A stretch of DNA of 39,436 bases, taken from IMG/VR virus record IMGVR_UViG_2537561944_000032; one strand, 5' to 3'. The DNA comes from a virus (taxonomy: Duplodnaviria; Heunggongvirae; Uroviricota; Caudoviricetes). Shown one piece after another: positions 2,890 to 36,458 of the stretch (its first letter is position 1; every line of letters begins with the position of its first letter). The notes beneath the pieces were generated by a model. The model did no database searches, was not told where the DNA came from, and was given only the letters and a program-made list of their open reading frames with translations. Both the position numbers and the translations under genes were made by a program.

Positions 2890-4029
2890 TCAGCTGCAAA
2901 TTTCGTTGTTGCTGCATGTTATCTCTTCAAGTGCAGCGGCGTTATAATCAACGGAATGATCAACCTGTGATGTAGGTCTGCCAAAAAATTCAACCCCTGA
3001 CATAATCATGTTGCCGATATTCTCTCGCTGTTTATCACTGAGCCTGTCCCACCACTCAGGGGATGAATATGTATTTTCGGCCTTTGTGAAGAAAAAATAC
3101 AGAAGGGTATTGAACATCCTGTTAGCTGGGATCTTAATTAGTGTCCGTATAAAACGTCTGATAATTGTTGAAGTTCTCAGCCAACTGAACACTACATATC
3201 CCTTACCTCCGCAGGAAAAAGCATTGAAACATACTTGTTCCGCCGACACTGTAAGATCGCTCAAATCCTGAATTTTGGTCCCATCGAAATCCCTCTCCGG
3301 TGAAAGAATTGACGAAACTACAATTGGTAAAGGCTCTGCAAAAGTGAAGATAACACTTTCAATTTCTGAAAATTGCCTGCTAAGTAGGATGCGGTCGAGG
3401 CTAGTTTTAAGATTATTTAATTCAATTATTGCTGCATTTAAGCCACTTTGGTGCTGGTCGATTAATTTCTGAATATAATACTGTTCAACTTGTAGCTTTC
3501 CTTTATCGGCATTTTTAGCAAAATCAGAAGATAGCACTCCCCCTTCTTTGGCATAAATTTCTTTAGACAATGAACGAAACATTAAGGCAAAGCACTGCTC
3601 GTCCGTGCCTGTAAATTTTTCGTTCTCTAGGCATGAAAATAAGATTCTGTCATGAACTGCACAAAATCCTGTAAAAGTGGATGCCTGATTGATACCGATC
3701 TTCTCGGGAAGCCATTTTCCGTTGTTTCTCATCAGGCTTGCTAAGTTCATTATCACCCCCATGACGTGATTGCTGGAGTCGGCGATCGCCTTAAGGCTAC
3801 TGCTCTTAGATATCGTATGCGCCTGAACGATGCGTTTATCACAATCTTCGTGCATGGATGCTGGCGCATAACATGCCTTTCTCTGCGAGAGAGACTTTGA
3901 AAATTTCAGTGCCTCGGCTTTGGATACCGGAGTTTCACGATCTCGACCAAGATGGCACTTTTTATACTTAAGTCCTGAATTACACCAGCACTTATCATTT
4001 CTTCCTAATTTCACTTTATTGTTTCCCAC
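2890..4029 (-). CDS. hypothetical protein with N-terminal SEC-C metal-binding motif (379 aa), cargo gene in AT-rich island
   Basis: ORF begins ...GRNDKCWCNSGLKYKKCH (CxC-x8-CH SEC-C motif); remainder has no family I recognise; region is markedly AT-rich relative to flanking phage genes; inserted between D and ogr, which are adjacent in P2. Start codon uncertain (GTG at 4029 or downstream GTG). Confidence 0.6.
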   Translation of the reverse strand: MGNNKVKLGRNDKCWCNSGLKYKKCHLGRDRETPVSKAEALKFSKSLSQRKACYAPASMHEDCDKRIVQAHTISKSSSLKAIADSSNHVMGVIMNLASLMRNNGKWLPEKIGINQASTFTGFCAVHDRILFSCLENEKFTGTDEQCFALMFRSLSKEIYAKEGGVLSSDFAKNADKGKLQVEQYYIQKLIDQHQSGLNAAIIELNNLKTSLDRILLSRQFSEIESVIFTFAEPLPIVVSSILSPERDFDGTKIQDLSDLTVSAEQVCFNAFSCGGKGYVVFSWLRTSTIIRRFIRTLIKIPANRMFNTLLYFFFTKAENTYSSPEWWDRLSDKQRENIGNMIMSGVEFFGRPTSQVDHSVDYNAAALEEITCSNNEICS

Positions 4030-5279
4030 GAAATTAATGTTCTATAACAAAAACACTTATCGAAAATAGGTGTAATTTATCACTCCGGCAGCTAAAAGAT
4101 CATCTGCCACATGCACGATAATAAATCTTCCTTGCGTCATCATCTCCCTCTGTTCTTAAATCAGGTGTTGCCTGTGTGCGGAGGATTCGCGAAGTACAGT
4201 AGCCGAAATGCATGATCTTACCCATCAATGGTGAGCACGCGATAATAAGTGAGTCCCTAATTGACCACTCATGGCAATACAACTTCAACCAGCATTCATG
4301 ACCACTATCCGTGGATTAACTGTTACATAAGCAACACCTGCTCTAGGCACAAAGCGGGCTGCCAGATTGGGTCTGGCACTGTGCTGTGAGTGTGTCAGTT
4401 CTGGTTTGAGTCAATACATCTAATTTGCTCATTCTGTTTCTGCTATCCATTCCGGGATTTTTGCTTCAAGCTCAAGCTGTGTGGTAAAGCCGCTGTTATC
4501 AATGGTGTGCTCGGCTTTTGCAATAATCCAGTCCTGATTATCGATGTCACTTTTGAAGCCTGTCACCGTGCCATGCATTTCGGGATAGAGTTCTGCGCGT
4601 CCACGCGCCAGCGTGATGGAGAATGATGCGGCTCCGCGTTGTAGCTGCTGCCACTTTGCCGCCGCTGCACGTCTTGCTGCCTGCTCGTTCTGATAAGTCT
4701 TGCGTAACACAAACACGTTGCCTTCCGCACCTTCCATATAGTCACCTTCACGGCTGCTGCTTTTCTCCTTTTTCGGTTTGCGGCGTTTCACGCTGACTTT
4801 TTTCTTTTCCCGTAATTAAGATCAAGCCAGTAAGCACGTACCCCCGTATACGCTTCGCGGTCAGCAATGCGGAACTGATGGCGATCGCCACTGCTGCGCG
4901 TGATGGCGAACGATGGCAACGGCTGGCCCTGTGCGTTCACGCCACCGCCTGGCATGATGAATAACAGATTACTGCTTTTTACCGTAGTGATTGCGCCCAG
5001 CATTTCCGCCATGCGCGTAAGGAAGGACATGTCGCTTTCTTCGGTCTGGTCGGCGTGGTCGATTTCAATATCCATCAGCATTTCGCTGATTTGTGGTTTC
5101 AGACCGTACCGATGAGCGATGGCGGATACCACGCGCTCAACGGTCACATCATGCCAGGACACCTCACGTTTAACGTTAAATTCATCCCGAAAATCTGCGC
5201 TTCTGGCTGAAACAGTCAGCCTGTCCGGCGGTCCTTCGTGAGCGATTTCATCAACAATGTAAGTGCCTTTTTCTGTCAG

Positions 5280-5306
5280 TGAGGTAGCCTGAGTTTAACG
5301 GACACT
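5280..5306 (+). repeat. IS left terminal inverted repeat
   Basis: tgaggtagcctgagtttaacggacact; matches reverse complement of 6517-6543 at about 19/27 positions, including the terminal TGAGGT and the CGGACACT block. Confidence 0.7.
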
Positions 5307-5343
5307 CCTTCCTGAAATAGAATGGCATCAGAAGGAGCTAATA

Positions 5344-5646
5344 ATGAGCAGAAAAACCCAACGTTACTCTAAAGAGTTCAAAGCCGAAGCTGTCAGAACG
5401 GTTCTTGAAAATCAACTTTCGATCAGTGAAGGCGCTTCCCGATTATCTCTTCCTGAAGGCACTTTAGGACAATGGGTTACCGCCGCCAGAAAAGGGCTCG
5501 GTACTCCTGGTTCCCGCACGGTGGCTGAACTGGAATCTGAAATTCTGCAACTGCGTAAGGCGTTAAATGAAGCTCGCCTTGAGCGAGATATATTAAAAAA
5601 AGCAACAGCGTATTTTGCACAGGAGTCGCTGAAAAATACGCGTTAA
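5344..5646 (+). CDS. IS3-family transposase OrfA (HTH DNA-binding, 100 aa)
   Basis: MSRKTQRYSKEFKAEAVRTV...LERDILKKATAYFAQES; typical IS3 OrfA with leucine zipper; contains slippery A_AAA_AAA_G at 5595-5602. Confidence 0.85.
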   Translation: MSRKTQRYSKEFKAEAVRTVLENQLSISEGASRLSLPEGTLGQWVTAARKGLGTPGSRTVAELESEILQLRKALNEARLERDILKKATAYFAQESLKNTR

Positions 5647-6500
5647 TCGAACAATGGCGACAACAATTTCCCATTGAAGCGATGTGTCAGGTATTTGGTG
5701 TATCCAGGAGCGGTTATTACAACTGGGTACAGCATGAACCCTCAGACAGAAAACAAAGTGATGAGCGGCTAAAACTGGAGATTAAGGTGGCACATATCCG
5801 CACTCGCGAAACATATGGAACCCGGCGGCTCCAGACGGAGCTGGCAGAGAATGGCATCATCGTTGGTCGTGACCGACTGGCACGTCTTCGTAAGGAGCTA
5901 AGGCTACGCTGTAAGCAGAAACGCAAGTTCAGAGCGACTACGAACTCGAACCACAATCTGCCAGTTGCGCCAAATCTGCTGAACCAGACGTTCGCTCCTA
6001 CAGCACCAAATCAGGTCTGGGTGGCGGACCTGACGTATGTTGCCACACAGGAGGGATGGTTGTACCTCGCTGGCATCAAAGATGTTTATACGTGCGAAAT
6101 TGTCGGCTACGCCATGGGAGAGCGCATGACAAAAGAGCTGACAGGTAAAGCTCTGTTTATGGCGCTCAGGAGCCAGCGCCCACCTGCCGGGCTAATCCAC
6201 CACTCTGATCGAGGTTCACAGTACTGCGCATACGATTACCGGGTCATACAGGAGCAGTTTGGTCTGAAAACATCAATGTCGCGTAAAGGTAACTGTTACG
6301 ACAACGCTCCGATGGAAAGCTTCTGGGGAACGCTGAAAAATGAGAGCCTGAGCCACTATCGTTTTAATAACCGGGATGAAGCCATCTCAGTAATACGGGA
6401 ATACATTGAGATTTTCTACAATCGTCAGCGTCGTCACTCTCGTCTGGGGAATATCTCCCCGGCAGCCTTCAGGGAAAAATATCATCAGATGGCTGCTTAA
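5595..6500 (+). CDS. IS3-family transposase OrfB (DDE integrase domain), expressed as OrfAB fusion by -1 frameshift
   Basis: Frame -1 relative to orfA is open from 5583; reads KKSNSVFCTGVAEKYALIEQWRQQFPIEAMCQVFGVSRSGYY... with DDE catalytic core (HSDRGSQY...NAPMESFWGTLK); start coordinate given at the slip site. Confidence 0.8.
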   Translation, partial: KKSNSVFCTGVAEKYALIEQWRQQFPIEAMCQVFGVSRSGYYNWVQHEPSDRKQSDERLKLEIKVAHIRTRETYGTRRLQTELAENGIIVGRDRLARLRKELRLRCKQKRKFRATTNSNHNLPVAPNLLNQTFAPTAPNQVWVADLTYVATQEGWLYLAGIKDVYTCEIVGYAMGERMTKELTGKALFMALRSQRPPAGLIHHSDRGSQYCAYDYRVIQEQFGLKTSMSRKGNCYDNAPMESFWGTLKNESLSHYRFNNRDEAISVIREYIEIFYNRQRRHSRLGNISPAAFREKYHQMAA

Positions 6501-6516
6501 AAAAAGAACAAATGGT

Positions 6517-6543
6517 AGTGTCCGCTATTGCCAGTACACCTCA
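6517..6543 (+). repeat. IS right terminal inverted repeat
   Basis: agtgtccgctattgccagtacacctca; terminal CA; its last three bases create the TGA stop that truncates the gpD N-terminal fragment. Confidence 0.7.
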
Positions 6544-6952
6544 CAGCGGTTCTCCTTTCCAGCCAATGAGAACCGTCAGGCGCGCGCCCCGTGGCGGTAG
6601 CTGCAACTGACCATCCGCATCATCCAGCGTGATGGTGAGCAGGTCCGCTTCAAATCCCCGGTTGTCGGTCAGTGACAGGCTCATCAGGCGCTCTGCCACG
6701 CCGGACAGTGTTTCCCCCTCCGCGAGAATATCAAAATCCGGCATTTTCACGGGGTCTGTGCTCTGACTGAGCAATTGCATGGTGGTATCGGTCATCTGTT
6801 CCCTCCCTGTGCGGCATGGTCGCATGTGCGTGCATAGGGGGTTACTGCTTTTTGTTGTCGCCGTGGCGGGAGAACGGCGCAGGGGTGAGATTACGCGCGT
6901 GGTGGGTGATGATTGTTGCCGAATCATTTAACGGATACAAGGGGCTGAAGCT

Positions 6953-12684: not shown

Positions 12685-13257
12685 GTGCTGTCTTACTTAA
12701 TGGCAATTCACTTTGCTTTATTTGGGGACTCTACTAATTTAAAAAACTTCTGGAAATATGAAGTAATTCGGCGGAAACGTATGGATATCTGGAGGCTTTT
12801 AAGAGAGAAAAAACAGCGTAACCGGAATTTCCTTTTCTGGTGGCGGTTGGCTAACGAAATGTATATTAATGGTAATAAATTACATAAGAAAGCAGCCAAA
12901 AAGTTAAACAGTAAAATAATTAACAAATTTGGTTGTGAAATTGGATTGGGCGCAAATATTGGAAAAGGGTTAACAATTCCCCATCATGCTGGAATTGTTG
13001 TTCATTTTGCTGTTGATGCTGGTGAAAATCTGGTGTTACGACAGAATACTACCATTGGACAGATAGATGGTGACATGCCTGGTTCAAGAGTAAAAATTGG
13101 TAGTAACGTTGATATCGGAGCTAATTGTTGCATCATTGGATTATCACGTAAAATTGGGGATAATGTAAAAATAGGTGCAATGTCTTTTATAAATAAAGAT
13201 ATACCATCGAACTGCACATATATAACTAAAAAGAGCGGTGTTGTATTGTATAAATAG
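12685..13257 (+). CDS. hexapeptide-repeat (left-handed beta-helix) acetyltransferase, CysE/LacA/WcaB-like; cargo gene
   Basis: Repeated [LIV]-G-x-x-x-x-I hexapeptide units (IGKGLTIPHHAGIVV...VKIGSNVDIGANCCIIG...KIGDNVKIGAMSF); GTG start at 12685 with AAGGAG RBS (ATG at 12700 alternative); region 12570-13260 is strongly AT-rich; followed by hairpin terminator. Confidence 0.75.
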   Translation: MLSYLMAIHFALFGDSTNLKNFWKYEVIRRKRMDIWRLLREKKQRNRNFLFWWRLANEMYINGNKLHKKAAKKLNSKIINKFGCEIGLGANIGKGLTIPHHAGIVVHFAVDAGENLVLRQNTTIGQIDGDMPGSRVKIGSNVDIGANCCIIGLSRKIGDNVKIGAMSFINKDIPSNCTYITKKSGVVLYK

Positions 13258-19480: not shown

Positions 19481-21358
19481 TTACGCTGCAGGACTATTTA
19501 TTTCCAGCACCAGACTTTCTATCTCAACGCCATACGTTGCATTTTTGGTAATATCCGTCAGCGTCAGTGCATTCAGCCCCAGTGTCAGACTGTCTTTTAT
19601 GACCTGGAATGCCGGGCCAGCCACTCCATTCAGTTTCGGAGTAACCGTGGCACTGCTGGCGGTGAACACCAGCTCCAGCGTCTGCCAGTCGTTACTGTAA
19701 TTCCCGAACTCGCCCAACTTTGTGTTTCCTGCTTTCTTGTGATGCATCAGATTCAGTTTGCCGTCTGTGGTCTGGGTGAAGAACGACATCAGGAACGGGT
19801 TACCAGTCCCGGTCATCGCCACGACGTCAGGTAACGCTACATCGGTATACAGATAAATTCCCAGACCGAACTGATTGTTGGTCAGTGCGCCTGACAGGCG
19901 GAACTTACAGGTCAGTCTGCCGCCCTGTGTCAGCAGGGTAATTGCGTCATCCACCGGATGCGTCAGGGACCAGGTTTTATTGCTCTGCTTGGTGATCTTA
20001 AATACACCATCTGACAACTGAATTCCGCCATCCTTAATGCTCCAGCCCTGCGCAGCAGCCTCTCCGGCTGCCGGCAGCAGGGAGATTGTGCGAACGGACG
20101 TATCTGCAGACGGACCCGATGGCGTGTTGCCGCCGGGCGAGGGTTTGATTTCCGGTGCCTTACCACTGATGAAGGCTAAGGTGCGACCGGCTACGTTCAG
20201 AATAGCGGTTGCCATACGATCCGGAATAATGCTCCTGCGCGCCCATGAACTGAAATGCGTCTGGCGATTTGATGATACCCAGTTTTTGTTCGTTCGGGAT
20301 GCCGAACCGTAATATCCCTCACTTGCAGCATCCGGATCTTCCGTTGGTGCGTTGGTGGAGGTATTGTTGCCACTACCATCGGTCAGGAATGGCACAAAGA
20401 AAACGTTGTCGCTCTCCCTGTTTTTGTACGCCCCGTAAATGGTGTCGTACTGCGTGCCGTAGGTGTTTTTCCAGTAATACGTCGTGTCACCACAAATCCA
20501 TGGCACACTTGCCGCTCTGCCTCCATGACACTGCGTGTTAAACTCGGTAATGTCCGCACGAAACTGTTTCAGCATGGCCGCAAACAGCGGAGGTTGCTGT
20601 GAGTACGTAGCGGCGCTCATGTCAAATTCGCCCTGCATCCAGCATACGGCCAGCAGCATGTTTTTTGGGTTTTTCTGCAATGCGGCCTTCGTGCGCAAAA
20701 TCAGGTCCTGATATAAAGGTTTACCCACACCCCAGCGAGCCGAATCCTGACTGGCTCCTGTGGACTCGCTGAATGTCCCCTCCGCGCCCTGGGTGAATGC
20801 CGAACCACCACGACAGCATGGAACCAGTAAAATCCCGGCATTCTGTGGAATGTAAGGCAACAGGCGTTTGGCAATATGCAAGCCCTGTCCGACACAGCCA
20901 TACTGCCCTTTGCTCAGGTCTGCATTCGGGTGATTCAGTACGCTCATATCCTGAACATCATGCAGGCAGTGATCTGCCGGAATGATGTCGTTAAATGCGC
21001 ATGCTTTACCACCGGGAGTCACTGTGTTGCGACGGGCCAGTTGCTTAATGCGTGGGTGGGGCGCATCGTAAGAATCCGGCAGCGGCATTCCCTCACCATA
21101 TGACATGGCATTGGATTGACCAGCAAGTACCACCACGTAATACCACTCCGGCACGCTGCCGTGCTGGGGGGAATCAGGTGAGATGTCTGTAGTGCCATCG
21201 GCCACCATTGCCTGCATTAGATACCACGGGGTGCCGGGTTCGTAGGCAACCCGCGTCTCCCCCTGAAGATGCCACCCTTTCGCAAGATGTTCATTCACCT
21301 TTTGAGTCAGTTCAGCCTGTGTCATGGCTGTAATCAGTGCAAAGTTCTTACTGGTCAT
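19481..21358 (-). CDS. prophage NanS-p-like protein: N-terminal DUF1737 + SGNH-hydrolase/sialate O-acetylesterase-like domain + C-terminal beta-rich domain (625 aa); cargo gene
   Basis: N-terminus MTSKNFALITAMTQAELTQKVNEHLAKGW resembles DUF1737; VVLAGQSNAMSYG contains the GQSN motif of the DUF303/SASA esterase family; inserted between lysC and R, which are adjacent in P2. Confidence 0.7.
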   Translation of the reverse strand: MTSKNFALITAMTQAELTQKVNEHLAKGWHLQGETRVAYEPGTPWYLMQAMVADGTTDISPDSPQHGSVPEWYYVVVLAGQSNAMSYGEGMPLPDSYDAPHPRIKQLARRNTVTPGGKACAFNDIIPADHCLHDVQDMSVLNHPNADLSKGQYGCVGQGLHIAKRLLPYIPQNAGILLVPCCRGGSAFTQGAEGTFSESTGASQDSARWGVGKPLYQDLILRTKAALQKNPKNMLLAVCWMQGEFDMSAATYSQQPPLFAAMLKQFRADITEFNTQCHGGRAASVPWICGDTTYYWKNTYGTQYDTIYGAYKNRESDNVFFVPFLTDGSGNNTSTNAPTEDPDAASEGYYGSASRTNKNWVSSNRQTHFSSWARRSIIPDRMATAILNVAGRTLAFISGKAPEIKPSPGGNTPSGPSADTSVRTISLLPAAGEAAAQGWSIKDGGIQLSDGVFKITKQSNKTWSLTHPVDDAITLLTQGGRLTCKFRLSGALTNNQFGLGIYLYTDVALPDVVAMTGTGNPFLMSFFTQTTDGKLNLMHHKKAGNTKLGEFGNYSNDWQTLELVFTASSATVTPKLNGVAGPAFQVIKDSLTLGLNALTLTDITKNATYGVEIESLVLEINSPAA

Positions 21359-26324: not shown

Positions 26325-28075
26325 ATGATTCAGGACGCTTTTGTGCGCCAGCGTGCGCGGCAACTTTACTGGCAGGGTTATCCGCCCGCAGAAATATCAC
26401 GTCTGATGGGAATAAACCCGAACACGATTTATGCGTGGAAAAAACGCGACCAGTGGGATGAAACGCCACCCGTGCAGCGTGTCACGCAGTCCATCGATGC
26501 GCGCCTCATCCAGCTTACTGAAAAACAGAATAAAACAGGCGGTGACTTTAAGGAAATAGACCTGCTGACCCGGCAGCTTAAAAAACTGCATGATGGCCAG
26601 CCGGATGCGACGGTCACAGGAAAGAAAGGCCGGGCGAAAAAACTCAAAAATCATTTCACGCCGGAACAGATTGCCGCACTGCGGGAAAAAATCATCAGCA
26701 GGCTGGAGTGGCATCAGCGGGGCTGGTTTGACTCCCTGACCCTTTGCAGGGAAGCCGGGATACGTAACAGGATGATCCTGAAATCCCGACAGATTGGGGC
26801 GACCTGGTATTTTGCACAGGAAGCTCTGCTGATGGCGCTGCGTGACGATGTGGCGCAACCTTACCAGCGTAACCAGATTTTTTTGCTGCGTCGCGTCGTC
26901 AGGCGTTCCAGTTTAAAAGCATTATTCAGAAGGCCGCGGCTGAAGTTGATGTGGAGCTGAAAGGGGGCGATAAAATCATCCTCTCCAACGGCGCAGAGCT
27001 GCATTTTCTCGGCACTTCTGCTGCGTCGGCACAGTCCTATACGGGCAATTTTTATTTTGATGAATTTTTCTGGGTCAGTCGCTTTGCTGAACTGCGCAAG
27101 GTGGCTGGCGCTATGGCAACCCTCAGCGGACTGCGGCGCACCTACTTCTCCACGCCATCCACCGAAACGCACGAGGCATACGCCTACTGGAACGGCGACC
27201 GCTGGAACGAGAAAAAGGCCACGCATAAACGCCAGCGTTTTTCTGTGGACTGGAAAACGCTGCATAACGGGCTTATCTGCCCTGACCGGACGTGGCGGCA
27301 AATTGTCACGCTGGAAGATGTGGTCAATCACGGCTGGAAACACACCGATATCGACGAAATTCGTGATGAAAACACCGAAGACGAGTTCCTCAATCTCTAT
27401 ATGTGTGAGTTTGTCCGCGAAGGGGAATCGGCATTTAACCTGAATATCCTGATTGGCTGCGGTGTTGACGGATACGACGACTGGAAAGACTGGAAACCTT
27501 TTGCTCCCCGCCCGATGGGGAATCGTCCGGTATGGATTGGGTATGACGCAAACGGCAGTAGTGGCAACGGCGACAGCGGCGCTGTGTCCGTGGTGGTTCC
27601 TCCGGCTGTTCCTGGTGGCCGTTTTCGAACGGTGGAGACGCGACGCGTTCAGGGGCTGGAGTTTGAAGAACAGGCCAGAGTCATTGAAGAGTTCACGTAT
27701 CGCTACAACGTGGAACACATCGGCATTGATGTGACGGGCGGGAACGGGGAGGCTGTTTATCAGATAGTGAAACGGTTTTTCCCTGCTGCTATTCCGTACA
27801 CCTTCACGCTGTCATCAAAACGGTCGCTGGTACTGAAAATGCTGCAAATAATGCGTGCCGGGCGGTGGGAATACGATCGCGCCGAACGCGAGCTGGTCGC
27901 GGCCTTTAACGCCGTGCGTAAGGTGAAAACACCGGGCGGCTTTATCACTTACGAAACGGACCGCGCGAGGGGGATCAGCCACGGCGACCTTGCGTGGGCA
28001 ACCATGCTTGCTGTCATTAACGAACCGATTGGCGGCGAAGGAGAAAACGAGCGTTTCACGGTTATGGAGTTCTGA
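26325..28075 (+). pseudogene. P: terminase large (ATPase) subunit gpP-like, split into two frames at a T7 homopolymer (frameshifted)
   Basis: ORF 26325..26960 matches the gpP N-terminus (ARQLYWQG...LKSRQIGATWYFA...NQIFL), then runs out of frame; ORF 26951..28075 in another frame continues the gpP alignment (VELKGG...RTYFSTPST...IGYD...FRTVE). Frame break is at the T-run 26878-26884. Confidence 0.85.
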
Positions 28076-28100
28076 TGAGCAGAAAAATAAAAAAGTGCGC

Positions 28101-29120
28101 ATGAGTTCACGCATTGATCTCGCTGATGCGCTCAGGAAAGAATCATCGCTCAGTGCATTCACATTTGATGGTCCTTATCGCCTGACCGGGCATGACCTGC
28201 TGGACAATATGTACTGTGCTGATAACGGACGGTGGTATGAAACCCCGGTGGACTGGTACGGTCTGGCAAGAGCAGCCCGGCAAACGTCCTGGCATCAGTC
28301 TGCGCTTTACTTTAAGCGCAATGTATTACTCGGTTGCTACATCCCGCACCCGCTGCTTTCCCGGCAGGATTTCTCGGCGCTGGCGCTGGACTGGTTTGTG
28401 TTCGGTAACGCATTCCTTGAGCTTAGAAGCAATATGCTCGGCGAACCGCTTAAATTACGGCACGCCCTGGCGAAATACATGCGACGCGGAAGCGATCTTG
28501 AATCATGGTGGTATGTGCAGGATGGCAAGGACGCGTTCCAGTTTCGCCCTGGCAAAGTGTGCCACCTGATGAATCCGGATATTAACCAGGAAATCTACGG
28601 CATGCCGGAATATCTTGGCGCATTACTCTCGGCCAGCCTTTCTCATTCGGCGGACATGTTCAGAAAACTGTACTACGACAACGGATCCCACGCCGGGTGC
28701 ATCATCTACATCGGTGCAGCGCAGGTAAACCGCGAAAGCATGGACTCCCTGAAAGAAACGTTACAGGGCGCGCGTGGTGGTGGTGCGTTTAAAAACGTAC
28801 TCATCCATGCGCCCAACGGGGGCAAAGAAGGTGTGCAAATTTTGCCGTTCCAGCAGATCACTGCAAAGGATGAGTTCATGAATGTTAAGGCGGCATCCCG
28901 TGATGATGTGCTGGCTGCGCACCGCGTTCCGCCGCAACTGATGGGGGCGATGCCGGGCGAAAAAAGTGCGTTTGGTGATGTGGAGAAGGCCGCGCGGGTT
29001 TACGCAATTAACGAGCTGATGCCCGTTATGGAGGCCATGAAGCACATCAATGACTGGCTTGGCGAAGAGGTGATCCGCTTTAACCCTTACGCACTGCTAG
29101 ATACCCAGCCCACATCCTGA
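28101..29120 (+). CDS. Q: portal (capsid vertex) protein gpQ-like
   Basis: 339 aa from ATG 28101 (ORF opens at 27990, overlapping the end of P); downstream of P on the same strand, divergent from O as in P2. Confidence 0.85.
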   Translation: MSSRIDLADALRKESSLSAFTFDGPYRLTGHDLLDNMYCADNGRWYETPVDWYGLARAARQTSWHQSALYFKRNVLLGCYIPHPLLSRQDFSALALDWFVFGNAFLELRSNMLGEPLKLRHALAKYMRRGSDLESWWYVQDGKDAFQFRPGKVCHLMNPDINQEIYGMPEYLGALLSASLSHSADMFRKLYYDNGSHAGCIIYIGAAQVNRESMDSLKETLQGARGGGAFKNVLIHAPNGGKEGVQILPFQQITAKDEFMNVKAASRDDVLAAHRVPPQLMGAMPGEKSAFGDVEKAARVYAINELMPVMEAMKHINDWLGEEVIRFNPYALLDTQPTS

Positions 29121-30579: not shown

Positions 30580-31539
30580 TTACTCCTTGTCCATTGCGTA
30601 CAGCCCATTAACCAGAGCAAACTGTGGCACCCCGTCCGCGATGAAAGTCGCATTAACTCCGCAGGCTTCGCGGATAGCGGGTGCCACAATCTCCGCCCCT
30701 CCACCGACAACCATCACCCGCCCGTAACCCGAAAAACCCGCCAGCGCGCGGATCACGCGTTGTTTCAGTGTTTCTTCCTTTTCACGAATAACCGCCATCA
30801 GGCTGGCGTAATGCGCGTCATTGTGGATGTGCTGGCGCAGCCAGGCTTCATCATGGCGATGTTCGATAATGGTATTGGCGATGTGGTGACTGGTGCGCAT
30901 ACCGTTAGTGGCCATCACCGACAGTACGGCATCGGCCATCAGAGAAACGCCCACGTGTGGATCGCAAAACACCTGGCTGATACCTGCCAGTTGCCCCTGA
31001 ACCTTTGCCACATCCAGAGTGGTTCCGCCCAAATCCACAATCAGCAGGGATTCAAACGGACTCATGTCAGCCAGTGCCTTAAAGCCAGCCGGAATGGATT
31101 CAGGCATAACCCGTACGTTACGGATAGTGAATGCTTCGCCGTTCTGGTACTCCACCGGGCGCATGACGTTCGCTTTTTTGCGGTTGATGTTGGCCATGTC
31201 CGGCTGTGCGTTTGTATCGAAATACTCGCTCAGTGGCAGGGTGACAACCACATCCACTTCCTGTGGTGTGATGCCTGATTTGACCAGCGCGTGATGAATG
31301 GCAATTATATTCACATCGCTGTACTGGTATTGCGTGTCGGTCGTCTGGACAAAGCGATCGCTGACCGGATCAAAACCATAGCGCACGCCATCAAGCATGT
31401 AGTTCGCGGGCTGCGTGCCACCGAACGGCGCAGACCATTCCGACTTGAAGCTGTTCGGGCTGATGGCGTTGCGGCGTTCGCCGTTCTCAGTCCATGCCAG
31501 CTTGATGTTGGTGGAGCCGTCGTCGATACAAATTTTCAT
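30580..31539 (-). CDS. ParM/StbA-like actin-family ATPase
   Basis: N-terminus MKICIDDGSTNIKLAW...ISPNSFKSEW...QYSDVNIIAIHHALVKSG closely parallels plasmid R1 ParM (FIDDGSTNIKLQW...ISPNSFKREW...QYSDVNVVAVHHALL) as I recall it; also the adjacent-Gly phosphate-binding loop DLGGTT. Confidence 0.8.
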   Translation of the reverse strand: MKICIDDGSTNIKLAWTENGERRNAISPNSFKSEWSAPFGGTQPANYMLDGVRYGFDPVSDRFVQTTDTQYQYSDVNIIAIHHALVKSGITPQEVDVVVTLPLSEYFDTNAQPDMANINRKKANVMRPVEYQNGEAFTIRNVRVMPESIPAGFKALADMSPFESLLIVDLGGTTLDVAKVQGQLAGISQVFCDPHVGVSLMADAVLSVMATNGMRTSHHIANTIIEHRHDEAWLRQHIHNDAHYASLMAVIREKEETLKQRVIRALAGFSGYGRVMVVGGGAEIVAPAIREACGVNATFIADGVPQFALVNGLYAMDKE

Positions 31540-36108: not shown

Positions 36109-36458
36109 TTATAAAGCAGCCTGTTTAATAAAACTTTGCCCGCGAAGCAGACGATCGACTGTGCGTAGTGCTTCGTACAATGTGAAATCCTGCCCGAACT
36201 GATTATCGCCGCTGCTTAATGCAAAAATGCGGTTTCCGGTAAACGGATTGTGTGGGCATCTGTGAACCACGATTCCAGCTTTCTCAATCAGCCAGGTGTG
36301 TTCGCCGATTTGTTTTACAGCGTGCCCATCTGGTGTTGCGTGCGTCTCGTTCAGGTTATAGCGGCTGTTACTACGTGATGCACTGGTAGCGACGTGGTGT
36401 ACATGGCGTTCTACGCCATTACGAAATTTGGAGTATGGATTATTAGTGTTTTTTTCAT
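36109..36458 (-). pseudogene. possible frameshifted early gene (about 115 codons open but without an in-frame start)
   Basis: ATG at 36458 opens a frame that stops after 15 codons; the +1 frame is open for about 120 codons to a stop at 36109-36111 (…HNPFTGNRIFALSSGDNQFGQDFTLYEALRTV…). The two frames would join with one extra A in the A7 run (plus-strand T-run 36449-36455). Confidence 0.3.

Follow-up and report, generated by a model that had tools for sequence, protein, structure and literature searches.

The closest described relatives of the terminase examined here are the large subunits of phage P88 (YP_009113067.1) and of the P88-like prophage of E. coli O26:H11 (WP_000613774.1), both of the genus Xuanwuvirus in the family Peduoviridae. 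Phage P2, which belongs to another genus, encodes the homologous protein gpP (NP_046758.1) as a single ORF; the motifs KSRQIGAT and NQIFLSAS are conserved in it, and the operon layout, P then Q, is common to both. Here, we analysed a stretch of 39,436 nt (the window), the source of which was the whole-genome shotgun draft contig AFAI02000036.1 of E. coli 900105 (10e), part of assembly GCA_000194725.2. In O26:H11 strain 11368 the P88-like prophage sits between pgsA/tRNA-Leu and yecA, and the window is its reverse complement. Over the whole gene, the terminase of the window had 97.9–99.2% nucleotide identity to those of P88-like phages (Xuanwuvirus) and 99.9% to the prophage gene in E. coli O26:H11 and related STEC. 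Gene order was also that of P88 and the O26 prophage, with the scaffold and capsid genes on one side and the terminase and then the portal gene on the other. The P88 and O26 genes have a T at gene position 562 that is missing from the gene in the window.

The tail genes run in the opposite order to those of P2; a rearrangement was considered and rejected, this order being normal for the prophage in O26 genomes. Several cargo-like genes were seen elsewhere in the window:

2890-4029, minus strand, gene of the YecA family with a SEC-C motif, between D and ogr
12685-13257, plus strand, serine O-acetyltransferase gene, adjoining the tail fibre genes
19481-21358, minus strand, gene for a SASA/DUF6645 protein of 625 aa, located between lysis and tail genes
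30580-31539, minus strand, partition pair of the ParM/StbA type

The terminase gene of the window is laid out in two reading frames, as follows:

26325-28075, plus strand, terminase large subunit gene, homologue of P2 gpP and of phage P88 gp24, assigned from Pfam matches and identity to P2 gpP
26325-26960, plus strand, upstream ORF of 211 aa, made up of the HTH/Terminase_5 domain, the start of the ATPase domain and 24 out-of-frame codons
26885-28075, plus strand, continuation of the terminase in the -1 frame relative to the upstream ORF, reading ...AASRRQAFQFKSIIQKAAAEVDVELKGG... and open to 28075

The gene spans 1751 nt, compared with 1752 aligned nt in intact relatives, and is split into ORFs of 211 and 374 aa. 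The upstream ORF starts at ATG 26325, reads ...KSRQIGATWYFAQEALLMALRDDVAQPYQRNQIFL and closes with a TGA stop at 26958-26960, the end of its translation reading ...YQRNQIFLLRRVV... before the stop; it corresponds to the deposited protein EIJ13954.1, for which an exact match was found on AFAI02000036.1 only. The annotated 374-aa downstream ORF begins at GTG 26951. Pfam searches recovered Terminase_5, Terminase_6N and Terminase_6C on an intact relative and across the two fragments, and the earlier note was correct in naming the gene a terminase large subunit. Terminase_5, the N-terminal gpP-like HTH domain, fell on the 211-aa fragment (E = 1.8e-27) and Terminase_6C, the C-terminal RNaseH-like nuclease domain, on the 374-aa fragment (E = 6.6e-32), while Terminase_6N was divided, with profile positions 1-35 on the upstream fragment and 67-211 on the called downstream ORF. 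A Walker-A-like motif, KSRQIGAT, is encoded in the upstream ORF (nt 26781-26804), and the downstream piece holds both the RNaseH-like nuclease domain and YFDEFFW (27053-27073), which we read as the Walker B motif. Both motifs are thus encoded, in different frames, and would lie on one polypeptide only after one T is restored.

On ORF evidence alone, the frame change is bounded by the TAA at 26870-26872, the last upstream stop in the downstream frame, and the frame 0 stop at 26958-26960. Across this interval P2 gpP (HNQIFLSASKTQAYVF), which has 44% identity over the whole protein, aligned with RNQIFL in the upstream frame and then with AASRRQAFQF. The earlier reading of the locus, in which a gpP homologue runs in frame to NQIFL and then continues in another frame, was therefore confirmed, with the -1 frame giving AASRRQAFQ... 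and P2 gpP spanning the break. The features that fix its position are two:

26878-26884, plus strand, T7 run, of the same length in intact homologues and not the lesion
26885-26886, plus strand, site of the missing base at gene position 562, G-T-C in intact genes and G-C in the window

Intact genes read CAG ATT TTT TTG TCT GCG TCG (within N Q I F L S A S), that is, T7 followed by GTCTGCG, and in the window T7 is followed by GCTGCG. The base lost is the T after G26885, which converts ATTTTTTTGTCTGCG to ATTTTTTTG-CTGCG; BLAST placed the gap at 26886, which corresponds to about position 137,664 of AFAI02000036.1, in both orientations, and inserting one T after 26885 turned the sequence into the intact O26 gene with no other difference. 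What has been lost is a lone T, flanked by G and C, which is the second base after the run. The earlier note had counted exactly seven T at 26878-26884, and we found the same number, but its proposal that the break is a change in this run was not borne out. The comparison of run length in related prophages that it had called for gave T7 in the window and also in the intact genes of P88, Shae_phiSM, O26:H11 strain 11368 and other finished E. coli genomes. T8, which would arithmetically restore the frame, was present in none of the intact relatives examined. Contraction or expansion of the T-run by homopolymer slippage was accordingly rejected as the lesion, T7 being the wild-type length, and because the missing T lies outside the run, the lesion is not a textbook homopolymer-length error.

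The 80-nt terminase sequence of the window occurred in none of the 1084 finished E. coli records carrying the gene, its portal variant in none of 1056 and its gene D variant in none of 1134, although absence from finished genomes alone does not separate a rare mutation from an error. Further drafts were gathered by exact look-ups of the truncated products. The same T deletion at gene position 562 (delta-T562) was found in three NCBI drafts, AFAI02, AQEN01000018.1 and ADUP01000059.1, whose terminase alleles differed from the O26/window allele by 0 SNPs, by 13 SNPs in 1482 nt and by 41 SNPs in 1483 nt, respectively. SNPs that distinguish the three delta-T562 alleles lie only 18–74 nt from the site, and thus the three drafts share no recombinant patch. 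On the evidence of these alleles, the recurrence of delta-T562 is homoplasy and not inheritance or a shared recombination patch. An identical change was therefore present on unrelated backgrounds, and only in low-quality assemblies. A-runs at the start of the portal gene were shortened in all three of these drafts; in addition, 164 nt downstream, the terminase gene of ADUP01 carries a further deletion in a T-run, and the second prophage copy of AQEN01 has 5 indels in 1.5 kb.

Relative to three finished O26 genomes, the window showed 5–11 SNPs and four one-base indels, all four of which were deletions in the window. Three of these were in homopolymers (T5 to T4, A6 to A5 and T8 to T7), and the fourth was that in the terminase gene, two bases after the T7 run. 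The three further deletions lie in the following features:

4805-4808, plus strand, T4 run in gene D, T5 in the three finished O26 genomes compared
28075-29120, plus strand, portal gene, with an A5 run at 28083-28087 against A6 in relatives
36449-36455, plus strand, T7 run, read as A7 on the coding strand and adjoining the ATG of the DUF4761 gene, T8 in most relatives

The frame opened by the native ATG of the portal gene (28075) stops after 9 codons, the A-run lying four codons in, and the gene was called instead from GTG 28095 with 341 aa. Portal A5 was found in at least eight drafts (AGRD01, AIGS01 (DEC10D), AIGR01, AFDT01, AIHN01, AIGM01, AQEN01 and AFAI02), on alleles that differ by 0–40 SNPs. 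It was present in 3 of 5 drafts picked on an unrelated criterion, as against none of 1056 finished records (Fisher p = 5e-8), and has the look of a site where base-calling errors recur. Frameshifts in the DEC drafts, among them AIGS (DEC10D), were previously flagged as possible sequencing errors (PMC5592225). Chromosomal DNA of a sister draft (L013) likewise carried 5 deletions and no SNPs in 20 kb, a deletion-only homopolymer signature. Overall, at least one of the four deletions of the window is almost certainly artefactual, and the terminase deletion behaves in the same way as its artefactual companion.

The distribution of differences along the window bears on the same question. The 21 kb from 18322 to 39436 contain no SNPs and three of the four deletions; assuming an indel:substitution ratio of 0.1, the probability of at least two indels in these 21 kb was ~0.001–0.04, and three deletions without SNPs over this distance are improbable as true divergence. 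All SNPs relative to the finished O26 prophages were between 10071 and 18321, in the tail-gene half, with none in the half that holds the head, replication and lysogeny genes, and the SNP-bearing tail module could be a recombination patch.

The second lesion in gene D, at 4798-4808, consists of TTTTTTCTTTT in place of TTTTTTCTTTTT; at this site, other drafts and Logan read-level assemblies showed the T4 of the window or, alternatively, a first run shortened to T5. The DUF4761 variant was found in 4 of 509 finished genomes, including 98E11, in which the gene is annotated as a pseudogene, and the A8 site is either truly hypervariable or generally error-prone. The A7 form of this gene was also seen in six other drafts.

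We conclude that the one-base gap in the terminase gene is very probably a systematic consensus or base-calling artefact of the draft assembly. In the bacterium the gene would then most likely be intact, and the gap at 26885/26886 would be an error of the deposited AFAI02000036.1 consensus, with T7-G-T-C mis-called as T7-G-C by the platform or pipeline behind a set of drafts that also under-call the A and T runs nearby. The fault would lie in base calling or in the building of the consensus; flow-based sequencing chemistry is our guess as to its origin. Known homopolymer errors of draft and early long-read assemblies are alike in being deletion-only, one-base changes in or beside A and T runs, in recurring at the same sites in unrelated strains, in being absent from finished genomes and in giving rise to apparent pseudogenes. 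The case is unlike the typical error in that the base lost is a singleton beside the run and not a member of it. The earlier note had allowed that a homopolymer length error in sequencing would give the same picture as decay; as an account of the break, sequencing error is the better supported of the two, but not as an error in T-run length, T7 being the wild type.

Several observations stand against an artefact. Besides the position of the missing T outside a homopolymer, under-calling is not pervasive in the region: a homopolymer census found only 1 of 10 runs of at least 7 bases to be shortened, along with 1 of 55 runs of 6 and 1 of 134 runs of 5, and a rate of shortening that rises with run length fits real slippage and sequencing error alike. 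On the left of the window, 3.46 kb of flanking chromosome were 100% identical to O26 11368, a weak test with little power, since only ~0.4 errors would be expected there. Genuine-looking T6 and T8 frameshifts also occur at the neighbouring T-run in otherwise clean assemblies. Finally, the prophage is truly defective, and relaxed selection following the disruption of gene D could permit true frameshifts.

This last point is the basis of the alternative that fares best after an artefact, namely that a real one-base deletion turned the terminase into a pseudogene in a truly defective prophage. The insertion concerned is the following:

5280-6543, plus strand, IS600, 1264 bp long, interrupting tail gene D between direct 3-bp CAG repeats at 5277-5279 and 6544-6546

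The element is complete and 100% identical to copies in O26 genomes. The CAG target duplication indicates that the insertion is a genuine transposition, and since the junction product was found on AFAI02000036.1 only, the insertion is private to the strain. It really does inactivate the prophage. Elements of the IS3 family use a programmed -1 frameshift near the end of orfA into orfB, and an A7 run of IS600 at 5595-5601, near the orfA end, is a candidate for a genuine recoding site.

With D interrupted, selection on the packaging genes would have ended, and frameshifts would have followed in P, Q, D and an early gene. Under this alternative neither terminase fragment could work alone, because the break parts the Walker-A-like motif from YFDEFFW. 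A real deletion is favoured by the genuine and strain-specific IS600 insertion with its target-site duplication, by a break that falls inside the Terminase_6N ATPase domain and by the loss of a base outside a homopolymer. It is further favoured by other frameshifts within the same 85-nt stretch (T6, T8 and delta-G510) in assemblies that are clean elsewhere, some of them with Logan read-level support. ABRUZX01, FBVG01 and Logan SRR26490633 carry T6 at loci that have no lesion at the portal and DUF4761 sites, and a different allele with T6 was found in 15 contigs that include Logan and ENA sources (protein P0004); T8 was found in JACIOL01 and delta-G510 in DAFAWJ01 and Logan ERR1218555. Such frameshifts in otherwise clean assemblies imply that the gene is inactivated in nature. 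Some of the assemblies with real-looking frameshifts in this stretch are derived from Illumina data.

Nevertheless, we consider a real deletion in this strain unlikely. The identical loss was found on three divergent alleles, exclusively in drafts laden with homopolymer errors and in none of the 1084 finished records; three deletions without a SNP in 21 kb are improbable for real divergence; and the behaviour of at least one companion deletion, portal A5, is that of a platform artefact. The earlier note had taken the terminase break together with the insertion sequence in D as pointing to a decaying prophage. Of that proposal the IS600 insertion in D, with its CAG duplication, stands; decay has no other support, the terminase break being better read as an error.

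The neighbouring frameshifts admit a broader form of the same idea, in which a mutational hot spot at T7-G-T repeatedly disarms P88-like prophages in natural E. coli, and delta-T562, T6, T8 and delta-G510 each arose independently as real changes. The T6, T8 and delta-G510 assemblies suggest that the T7 run may be a true hot spot for the inactivation of P88-like prophages. T6 was found in none of 1110 finished genomes. Under the broader idea, delta-T562 might also be leaky through a low-level -1 slip on U_UUU_UUG, giving an S188A terminase, at the following motif:

26879-26885, plus strand, T_TTT_TTG heptamer read in frame 0, which in form (X_XXY_YYZ) is a -1 slippery motif

We regard this combination, with all four changes real, as very unlikely.

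In the remaining alternative, the frameshift is real and is decoded, either by a -1 ribosomal slip on U_UUU_UUG or by transcriptional slippage on T7, such that full-length terminase is made. The products would carry NQIFLAAS or NQIFFAAS and not NQIFLSAS, and packaging would be reduced but not abolished. The heptamer is in the correct frame 0 register, as at the programmed -1 sites of IS3-family transposases and dnaX, where an X_XXY_YYZ motif is likewise found in frame 0 at the frame change, and a -1 slip would alter one residue only, from Ser to Ala. In contrast to those programmed sites, the motif here has no stimulator and is weak in E. coli, and homologues do not share the shift. A search of the downstream 80 nt for a stimulatory RNA structure found none (MFE -20.9 against a shuffle mean of -21.4, z = 0.17). 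E. coli heptamers that lack a stimulator reach just 2.1–10 times a background of ~0.055% (PMC4066793), and U_UU.U_UU.G is absent from the selected list of motifs above 0.1% in the same study (PMC4066793).

The two-frame arrangement is also not conserved: P88, Shae_phiSM and O26 11368 have one 1752-nt ORF, and the variant is missing from all 1084 finished records. No finished-genome homologue needs a shift, and among the best matches listed, all have the base of the uninterrupted gene. Moreover, a site created by the loss of one base is not a programmed signal. A conserved programmed frameshift was rejected, given uninterrupted homologues, the lack of a stimulator and a motif that is weak in E. 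coli; programmed recoding of the terminase is effectively excluded, the heptamer would give trace read-through at most, and decoding of a real frameshift into full-length terminase is scarcely credible.

Fragmented terminases are also found among reference phage genomes. In the RefSeq phage records 503458 (NC_049341) and 500465-2 (NC_049343) the terminase is annotated as three CDS, with 4 one-base deletions in the gene of phage 503458 and 2 in that of phage 500465-2; these are probably assembly errors carried into the reference genomes.

A draft consensus error at position 562 would imply nothing new about terminases or frameshifting. Were the deletion true, it would add a further inactivating mutation to a prophage that IS600 had already disabled, which is a well-known and unsurprising outcome. 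The practical value of the case is as a test, in that an identical indel on divergent alleles, seen only in drafts, marks a systematic error site. These results call for caution with early draft genomes, in which apparent prophage pseudogenes should be taken as decay only with read support.
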